Sequence record: LC739535.1
Strand: one strand, 5' to 3'
Source: Escherichia phage phiWec186
DNA: 64,000 bases
Each line of letters begins with the position of its first letter. Within the stretch, counting starts at the first letter, position 1. The notes beneath the pieces were generated by a model. That model made no database searches and was not told the DNA's origin. It was given only the letters and a program-made list of their open reading frames with translations. The position numbers and the translations under genes are program-made. Of this stretch, positions 42,569 through 42,803 are shown in pieces.

Positions 42569-42751
42569 TGTGGTAACAGAGACGTTGAAAGTAGTAGGAA
42601 GTAGCTACCATTCCTCGGACGTAAGCCCAACATTCAGCGTAAATGTTCTTGAGCCGAAGCTTTTCCATATGTTCTTTGGTAGCTAACCTCCGAACAAGTA
42701 GCCTCTAACATCTCAACGATGCAAATCCGTCTTAACAACAGTCAACGACCC
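42569..42751 (-). ncRNA. structured leader of the tRNA operon / candidate small stable RNA
   Basis: Nested inverted repeats: TGTGGTAACAG (42569-42579) with CTGTTACCACA (42741-42751), and TAGCTACC (42602-42609) with GGTAGCTA (42678-42685); lies between the promoter and the first tRNA. Confidence 0.35.
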
Positions 42752-42773
42752 TGTTACCACACTTGATAAAGCG

Positions 42774-42803
42774 TATCTTAACAAAATAAGACACGCTTGT
42801 CAA
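42774..42803 (-). promoter_or_regulatory. sigma70-like promoter of the tRNA operon (TTGACA, 18 bp spacer, TAAGAT; minus strand)
   Basis: Consensus -35 and good -10 read on the minus strand directly upstream of the leader and tRNA array. Confidence 0.55.

Follow-up and report, generated by a model that had tools for sequence, protein, structure and literature searches.

What occupies the leader between the first promoter of a transfer RNA (tRNA) operon and its first tRNA gene in Escherichia phage phiWec186? The window analysed here is a stretch of 64,000 nucleotides (nt) from this phage (LC739535.1), which we assigned to the genus Phapecoctavirus, subfamily Stephanstirmvirinae; the region is 100% identical to that of Escherichia phage phiWec179 and about 76% identical to that of phAPEC8-type phages. 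A first-pass annotation had suggested that the leader encodes a small stable RNA, or else a processing or regulatory leader, organised as two nested inverted repeats. Comparison with related phages reveals selection on the RNA structure of the transcribed strand, as this suggestion implied, although the structure comprises six helices and not two nested repeats. A functional structured RNA element is well supported by the pattern of sequence change, and we consider it probable that the region is the gene for a structured non-coding RNA of ~204 nt that forms the 5' external transcribed spacer of the phage tRNA operon, is released by RNase P and acts in trans. This leader RNA is previously undescribed and is restricted to one genus, although stable structured RNAs in phage tRNA operons are a known kind.

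The promoter was described initially as TTGACA-N18-TAAGAT on the minus strand, pointing towards the tRNA array. Both hexamers and the strand are correct, but the spacer is 17 nt rather than 18 and the -10 element is TG-extended. Ten of the 12 hexamer positions match, although sites of the TTGACA/TAAGAT class are not enriched as such in the region (11 observed, compared with 9.6 +/- 3.3 in shuffles). Related phages keep the -35 hexamer, the TG and all but one of the six -10 positions, whereas the spacer carries several substitutions and one extra nucleotide; the phAPEC8 type has an extended -10 that reads TGTTAGGAT and a spacer of 18 nt. Retention of the hexamers and TG around a diverged spacer is what a working promoter would show. 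Phages of the rV5-like group have been reported to use promoters of the sigma-70 type, of which many have an extended -10 (PMC3606486). Transcription probably starts at about the A at 42767, and the equivalent A in the phAPEC8 type is located 7 nt past the -10. Counted from this predicted start to 42564, 1 nt before tRNA-Met, the leader is about 204 nt long, rather than the ~185 nt first estimated.

The leader first attracted attention because of an 11-base-pair (bp) perfect inverted repeat. One arm lies at 42569-42579 as described, and its partner is at 42751-42761, displaced by 10 nt from the position originally assigned to it (42741-42751). A perfect repeat of this length within 260 nt is no rarer than chance, with four present in the window compared with 5.2 +/- 3.2 in first-order Markov random sequences, which would fit the view that the locus holds nothing functional, being either a chance repeat in a spacer or a gene for a small protein. 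However, the repeat extends beyond chance to 30-nt arms that form 27 RNA pairs when G-U pairs are included. The minimum free energy (MFE) of the minus-strand leader is -73.3 kcal/mol, compared with -49.9 +/- 4.2 kcal/mol for dinucleotide shuffles (z = -5.63; 0 of 200 shuffles match), and the leaders of relatives fold equally well (z = -5.80 for the phAPEC8 version and -5.76 for a variant from IMG/VR). The plus strand reaches only -55 kcal/mol, 18 kcal/mol worse, as expected from the G-U pairs in P1 and other helices. The small-protein version of this view has in its favour a coding sequence (CDS) for a 34-amino-acid "hypothetical protein", annotated inside the leader in the PsgM04F and EP57 records (473-577 in both L013 and L012, approximately 42634-42738 of the window); elsewhere the leader region is unannotated. 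Yet every reading frame is interrupted in at least one sequence type, and isolates UP17, ukendt and nepoznato carry 1-nt indels. These stops and indels make the annotated CDS almost certainly spurious and, given also the significant folds in all three types and the compensatory changes described below, we assign next to no probability to a locus that is non-functional or protein-coding.

To compare structures we used a 12-sequence alignment with 78 pairs that represents three sequence types (about 75-90% identical), namely the window type, the phAPEC8 type and the IMG/VR contig L026. The three types differ at 24-44 of about 208 positions yet keep one six-helix structure, in which the terminal rod P1 leads to a three-way junction (P1/P2/P6) and then to a four-way junction (P2/P3/P4/P5). 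Across the alignment 95.9% of cells are paired, compared with 39-43% after a shift of the 3' partners by 1-3 columns. Both sides have changed in nine pairs, while pairing is complete in P3 to P6 and reaches 98.5% in P2. On the three-type tree there are roughly a dozen independent double substitutions, distributed over P2, P3, P4, P5 and P6, and none disrupts pairing. For example, pair 55-62 of P3 occurs as U-A, C-G and A-U, and one pair of P2 has changed on both sides (G-U, C-G and U-A) while four others vary on one side. P1 consists of 27 pairs (16 bp, a U-U mismatch, 7 bp, a 2x2 loop and 4 bp), three of which are G-U, so that the helix is specific to the transcribed strand. Folding and a search for compensatory changes in relatives, two of the checks proposed by the first-pass annotation, thus both favour a conserved RNA structure. 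The centroid or MFE structures of two types contain instead a long helix between the C-loop and the P6 3' strand, which we rejected as part of the consensus because its register differs among types and its first pair is mismatched in L027; we retain it only as a possible alternative conformer. Coordinates of all elements are collected in Table 1.

Table 1. Promoter elements, predicted leader RNA with its helices and loops, and first tRNA gene (positions in the window)
Feature	Position	Strand	Remarks
-35 hexamer TTGACA, first tRNA-operon promoter	42798..42803	-	Invariant in all aligned relatives
Extended -10 TGTTAAGAT (TG, one base, TAAGAT)	42775..42783	-	Hexamer 42780-42775; 17-nt spacer from -35
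Predicted ~204-nt structured non-coding RNA (5' external transcribed spacer)	42564..42767	-	Predicted ends: A at 42767; RNase P cut at tRNA-Met
P1 5' strand, terminal helix	42735..42764 (P1a, outer 16 bp, 42749-42764)	-	30-nt arm
P2 5' strand, closes four-way junction	42724..42729	-	Pairs with 42616-42622
P3 hairpin, 5-bp stem, variable loop	42708..42722	-	100% paired; 2 pairs changed on both sides
P4 long arm, three stacked helices, capped by 17-nt C-loop	42656..42705	-	100% paired; 2 pairs changed on both sides
C-loop NGAGGUUAGCUACCAAA, nearly invariant, palindrome UAGCUA	42675..42691	-	Predicted self-duplex -12.5 to -14.4 kcal/mol
P5 hairpin (6 bp, AGA internal loop, 7 bp), nearly invariant	42624..42655	-	One compensatory pair, U-A to A-U
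P2 3' strand	42616..42622	-	98.5% paired
P6 hairpin	42596..42615 (E-loop, 42601-42610)	-	100% paired; 3 of 5 pairs changed on both sides
E-loop segment complementary to C-loop segment 42677-42685, candidate kissing contact	42602..42610	-	9 bp
P1 3' strand	42566..42595 (P1a, 42566-42581)	-	Ends 2 nt before tRNA-Met
tRNA-Met(CAU), first tRNA of the array	42489..42563	-	ARAGORN, Rfam; 5' end is the predicted RNase P site for release of the leader

Substitutions between the types are distributed very unevenly over this structure. The outer part of the terminal helix, P1a, shows none at its 32 positions, compared with 44 at 176 positions elsewhere in the RNA (Fisher p = 3e-4). Similarly, the C-loop shows 1-2 substitutions at 17 positions, the J segment (UAAGA, alignment columns 38-43) none at five, and P5 0-2 at 32, where the two form one compensatory pair. 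The remaining parts are more variable: 3-7 of 13 positions differ in P2 (both strands), 2-4 of 10 in the P3 stem, 3-4 of 5 in the P3 loop, 3-9 of 33 in the P4 stems, 4 of 10 in the P6 stem and 3-5 of 10 in the E-loop. Thus P2, P3, P4 and P6 vary with compensation while P1a, the C-loop, the J segment and P5 are nearly fixed, a combination that is typical of functional RNAs. Constraint on the sequence of some modules suggests recognition by a partner, whereas others are constrained in their pairing only.

An 8-bp inner pair was also noted in the first description of the locus, where it was taken to be nested within the outer repeat. The complementarity is real and extends to 9 bp (42602-42610 with 42677-42685), but it joins two hairpin loops and does not form a nested helix. 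As a helix it would clash with P4 and P6, both of which are supported by covariation, and we therefore rejected this arrangement; as a kissing contact between the apical loop of P4 and the loop of P6 it clashes with none of the covarying helices. The two loops are complementary over 9 bp in the window type, 7 bp in L026 and 5 bp in the phAPEC8 type, with duplex energies of -14.2, -12.0 and -7.1 kcal/mol, respectively. The core of the contact, GCUAC:GUAGC, is invariant, and GUAGC represents the only invariant bases of the E-loop. On these modelled duplexes a kissing contact between the C-loop and the E-loop is plausible but unproven. Since the UAGCUA palindrome is invariant and has a favourable predicted self-duplex, pairing between molecules is equally possible.

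The leader could not be assigned to a known RNA family. Neither ARAGORN nor the Rfam tRNA model (RF00005) identified a tRNA in it, and ARAGORN found no tmRNA; the P2-P3-P4-P5 four-way junction has arm lengths and loops that are not tRNA-like. With no frame open across the types either, the first-pass annotation was right that no open reading frame (ORF) or tRNA fits here. It had also recommended a covariance-model search of Rfam; when the whole window was compared with Rfam 15 (4227 models), no family matched within 42564-42775 at gathering thresholds, and relaxing the search to E <= 10 with permissive filters for the leader alone produced a single 11-nt noise match. The phAPEC8 version of the leader likewise gave only noise at E <= 10. 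Inspection for a 6S-like rod, a CsrA sponge, an anticodon-loop mimic, a Shine-Dalgarno sequence with a small ORF, or an rrn boxA revealed no defining motif present in all three types, and these candidates were set aside. The literature we searched contained no paper that joins Phapecoctavirus with RNA sequencing or non-coding RNA.

The distribution of the element is narrow. A blastn search with distant sensitivity against 50,697 phage records returned 70 records, all Phapecoctavirus-like whatever the host name, and our covariance model (R1) scores 217 bits at the window leader and 207-247 bits in relatives. This model detected no second copy in the window and none in Justusliebigvirus muut or Klebsiella phage KP2025. 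Motif scans of IMG/VR recovered one true member, the contig L026 that represents the third sequence type; the matches L003 and L004 were rejected on reading their sequences, and further pattern matches were rejected by the covariance model as chance. A motif scan of metagenomes added two member contigs, each close to a known type. In Justusliebigvirus muut the homologous upstream ORF runs directly into tRNA-Met and the promoter lies upstream of that ORF, which implies that promoter and leader together form a genus-specific module. Several records in these searches bear non-coli host names, namely OR584014 (PsgM04F), MG065650, MG065639 and MG065689 (Campylobacter phages B15, A150 and A110a) and OP562383 (Acinetobacter phage ABPW7). 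These Pseudomonas-, Campylobacter- and Acinetobacter-named records are no more distant from Phapecoctavirus or Justusliebigvirus coliphages than named coliphages of those genera are; PsgM04F, for example, shares 99.7% identity with the window across 701 bases. Their host labels look doubtful.

The appearance of an insertion relative to Justusliebigvirus, with invariant terminal inverted repeats flanking about 140 bp, might also be explained at the level of DNA, by the remnant of a small mobile element, by paired operators or by an origin-associated hairpin, the RNA fold being incidental. However, the internal helices covary as RNA pairing demands, and both the G-U pairs of P1 and the poorer fold of the opposite strand indicate selection on the transcript. 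Mobility is not apparent either: the element is present in a single copy per genome, neither strand of the 64-kb window repeats the P1 arm or the C-loop motif elsewhere, the ends show no sign of a target-site duplication, 5,426 E. coli genomes contained no match, and an exact scan for two motifs, covering one genome per prokaryotic species, was also negative. An element acting as DNA is in our view very improbable.

A more serious alternative is that the leader acts purely in cis as a processing leader, in which P1 would be an RNase III site that detaches the 5' part of the transcript and aids the folding and maturation of the first tRNAs, the excised piece being waste. RNase III stems flank 16S and 23S rRNA, and a 27-bp rod suffices for E. 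coli RNase III. P1 is accordingly long enough, with 27 pairs compared with the almost uninterrupted duplex of at least ~20 bp expected of such a stem, and it adjoins tRNA-Met; Justusliebigvirus, moreover, does without the element. In being a helix of more than 20 bp formed from flanking sequences, P1 resembles the RNase III stems of rRNA operons and T7 early transcripts, but those enclose rRNA or sit between mRNAs, whereas P1 encloses a conserved multi-helix domain of 140 nt. A processing stem would leave unexplained the five further helices that are maintained by compensation and the near-invariance of the C-loop and P5. RNase III has weak sequence requirements, so its recognition does not require the invariance of P1a. 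There are also three promoters with a perfect TTGACA -35 in the tRNA array (hexamer starts at 42803, 42214 and 41201; minus strand, 39943-42803), and a long structured leader follows only the first; those at 42214 and 41201 drive tRNAs without one. We give this explanation a modest share of the probability.

A regulatory role in cis appears improbable. Such a leader might be a riboswitch-like sensor, or an antitermination RNA comparable to HK022 put or the rrn leader that serves the 2.7-kb untranslated tRNA array. Its position, just behind the first promoter of an operon that is long and untranslated, would be appropriate, and conserved junctions and loops combined with covarying stems recall riboswitch aptamers. 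Nevertheless, we could identify no expression platform, there is no terminator-like site in 42564-42770, and neither an ORF nor a ribosome-binding site follows. The 27-bp P1 would be too stable for switching, and RNase P cleavage 2 nt past P1 would soon sever the RNA from the polymerase, whereas put-type elements presumably need tethering. No riboswitch or leader family of Rfam matches, and the downstream promoters again function without such a leader.

The non-coding RNA that we favour might be produced and act as follows. Host sigma-70 RNA polymerase would initiate at about 42767 from the near-consensus extended -10 promoter, and the 5' and 3' ends of the transcript itself would close into the 27-bp P1 rod, which bears both junctions. 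Cleavage by RNase P at G+1 of tRNA-Met, 2 nt past P1, would then free the leader RNA, and release from the operon transcript in this way implies one copy of the RNA per round of transcription. The final three pairs of P1 (A-U, A-U and G-U) may fray, thereby offering RNase P a single-stranded leader, and the paired ends, with overhangs of 3 nt at the 5' end and 2 nt at the 3' end, would be expected to protect the RNA from exonucleases. Alternatively, RNase III might trim the P1 rod to give a shorter form. Action in trans would proceed through the invariant modules, P1a, the C-loop (GAGGUUAGCUACCAA) and P5, with the RNA functioning as a protein-binding or decoy RNA and/or associating with itself by loop-loop pairing. 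A protein partner, for which the RNA would act as decoy or scaffold, or self-association is more likely than antisense pairing, because the complement of the C-loop is absent from the 64-kb window and the RNA has no terminator-type 3' end.

Several points weigh against this reading. The discrete leader transcript and its ends are predictions, and any binding partner or target is hypothetical. P1 shows no covariation at all and three isolates each carry one mismatch in it, so that its pairing is argued from energy and from the strand asymmetry of its G-U pairs. The loop-loop contact does not covary either, and in the phAPEC8 type 10% of shuffled loops are as good. With just three independent types from a single genus, the covariation as a whole amounts to about a dozen events. 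Finally, the sister genus Justusliebigvirus has no element at this position, and the RNA must therefore be dispensable for a phage of this general type.

Comparison with characterised RNAs provides some guide to function. In phage T4, RNAs C and D (also called species 1 and 2 RNAs) come from genes inside the tRNA cluster; they are transcribed together with the tRNAs and released by the enzymes that process these. They are phage-encoded RNAs of 100-200 nt and provide the closest functional analogy to the leader which, as expected of an RNA of this kind, lies between a promoter (42803-42775) and tRNA genes (tRNA-Met starts at 42563). A discrete structured RNA that is freed by RNase P and would resemble RNAs C and D is most likely. 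There is no sequence homology between rnaC or rnaD and the leader, the distant-sensitivity blastn search having found Phapecoctavirus only, and the leader differs from both in being the 5' leader of the first transcription unit and in possessing a 27-bp terminal rod and multi-way junctions. The function of RNAs C and D is itself still unknown (PMC9697503). GOLLD and ROOL are ornate phage or prophage RNAs, often located near tRNA islands, that assemble via kissing loops and whose function is also unknown (PMC12286853). The leader is likewise phage-encoded, adjoins tRNAs and has an invariant palindromic apical loop together with a complementary second loop. At about 204 nt it is smaller than these RNAs (many GOLLD exceed 800 nt; PMC12286853), and it does not match their Rfam models. 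Whereas GOLLD and ROOL form homo-oligomers via kissing loops, oligomerisation of the leader is a prediction from duplex energies, for contacts that do not covary.

Other comparisons are more distant. The 3'ETS-leuZ sponge and the RtT RNA of the tyrT operon are by-products of tRNA-operon processing that act as RNAs themselves. These RNAs originate from 3' or internal spacers and are of small size, with little structure or a dependence on Hfq, whereas the leader is a highly structured 5' spacer; the Rfam RtT model does not match it. The 3' ends of MALAT1 (upstream of mascRNA) and of the C4 RNA of phage P1 are made by RNase P cutting at a downstream tRNA-like structure. This is the same route as that predicted for the 3' end of the leader, although sequence, structure and biology are unrelated. 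Y RNA and YrlA resemble the leader in that their paired ends form a sequence-conserved stem bearing a branched, cloverleaf-like module, but their models do not match and the leader has no T-loop or D-loop signatures. At the level of annotation, no Ro/Rsr (TROVE) gene is present within 36 kb of the locus in phage ukendt.

A bolder and unlikely possibility is that the leader represents a new class of phage effector RNA, delivered as one copy per tRNA-operon transcript and presenting an invariant 16-bp double-stranded end and an invariant palindromic apical loop, which would act either as a kissing-loop oligomer or as a decoy. The oligomer would be a dimer or higher form joined by kissing loops and would resemble ROOL and GOLLD on a miniature scale. 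The decoy would sequester an RNA-binding enzyme or a defence sensor of the host; examples would be RNase III and a nuclease or sensor that recognises structured phage RNA or tRNA. The puzzle of RNAs C and D of T4 is about fifty years old, and that of GOLLD and ROOL dates from 2009-2017. To this old puzzle of structured RNAs beside phage tRNA genes the leader adds a small, experimentally accessible case of ~204 nt from a phage of ordinary laboratory E. coli, with a clear secondary structure, modules constrained in sequence that can be separated from those constrained in structure only, and a sister genus without the element for comparison. Phapecoctavirus is common among coliphage isolates, as the 70 records attest, and the RNA, predicted to be expressed from a near-consensus promoter, is probably abundant and early, and would thus bear on host takeover.

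Downstream of the leader, ten tRNA genes occupy the minus strand from 40506 to 42563 (ARAGORN and Rfam RF00005), and the array is closed by a strong terminator (40042-20, AGAGCCTCC...GGAGGCTTTTTTTG), after which a fourth promoter with a perfect TTGACA follows at 39971. Small ORFs neighbouring the leader match only PHROG families with no assigned function. Within 36 kb around the locus in phage ukendt, genes for a putative RNA ligase and a phosphoesterase are located ~4-6 kb away on the opposite strand, while downstream the strand of the leader carries genes for lysis, terminase and structural proteins.

Directly behind the promoter at 42214-42185 is a class-II tRNA-like gene that is not annotated (42091-42176, minus strand), with a 7-bp acceptor stem, a T arm (GGGAG-UUCGACU-CUCCC), a long variable arm and the anticodon loop CUUGAAA (UGA, Ser). 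ARAGORN misses this gene and Rfam scores it at 37.1 bits as tRNA-Sec (threshold 47); it is kept in phAPEC8. A 170-nt spacer behind tRNA-Arg (42240-42411, minus strand) is strongly conserved with phAPEC8 over ~85 nt at its 5' end and ~60 nt at its 3' end, whereas the central ~45 nt have diverged. Its fold is not significant (z = -0.41) and Rfam returned no match; the spacer may represent a tRNA that has decayed, or some other RNA element. The tRNA content also differs between the two types, since phAPEC8 has a tRNA-Asn behind tRNA-Tyr (L002 4031-4116) where the phiWec179-type genome has a short annotated ORF (L001 4044-4172; approximately 41640-41770 of the window).

Unusual tRNA-like sequences are also found in other phages that we compared. 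An unannotated remnant behind tRNA-Leu in Escherichia phage muut (L005, ~3441-3550) combines acceptor-like ends (GCCTAGT...ACTAGGCT) with the T arm ATGGTTCGATTCCAT, and a long insert lies between these. In Klebsiella phage KP2025 a tRNA-Arg(TCT) is annotated over 432 nt (L006 5284-5715), overlapping the CDS of a DUF2828 protein, and represents either an annotation artefact or an interrupted tRNA gene.

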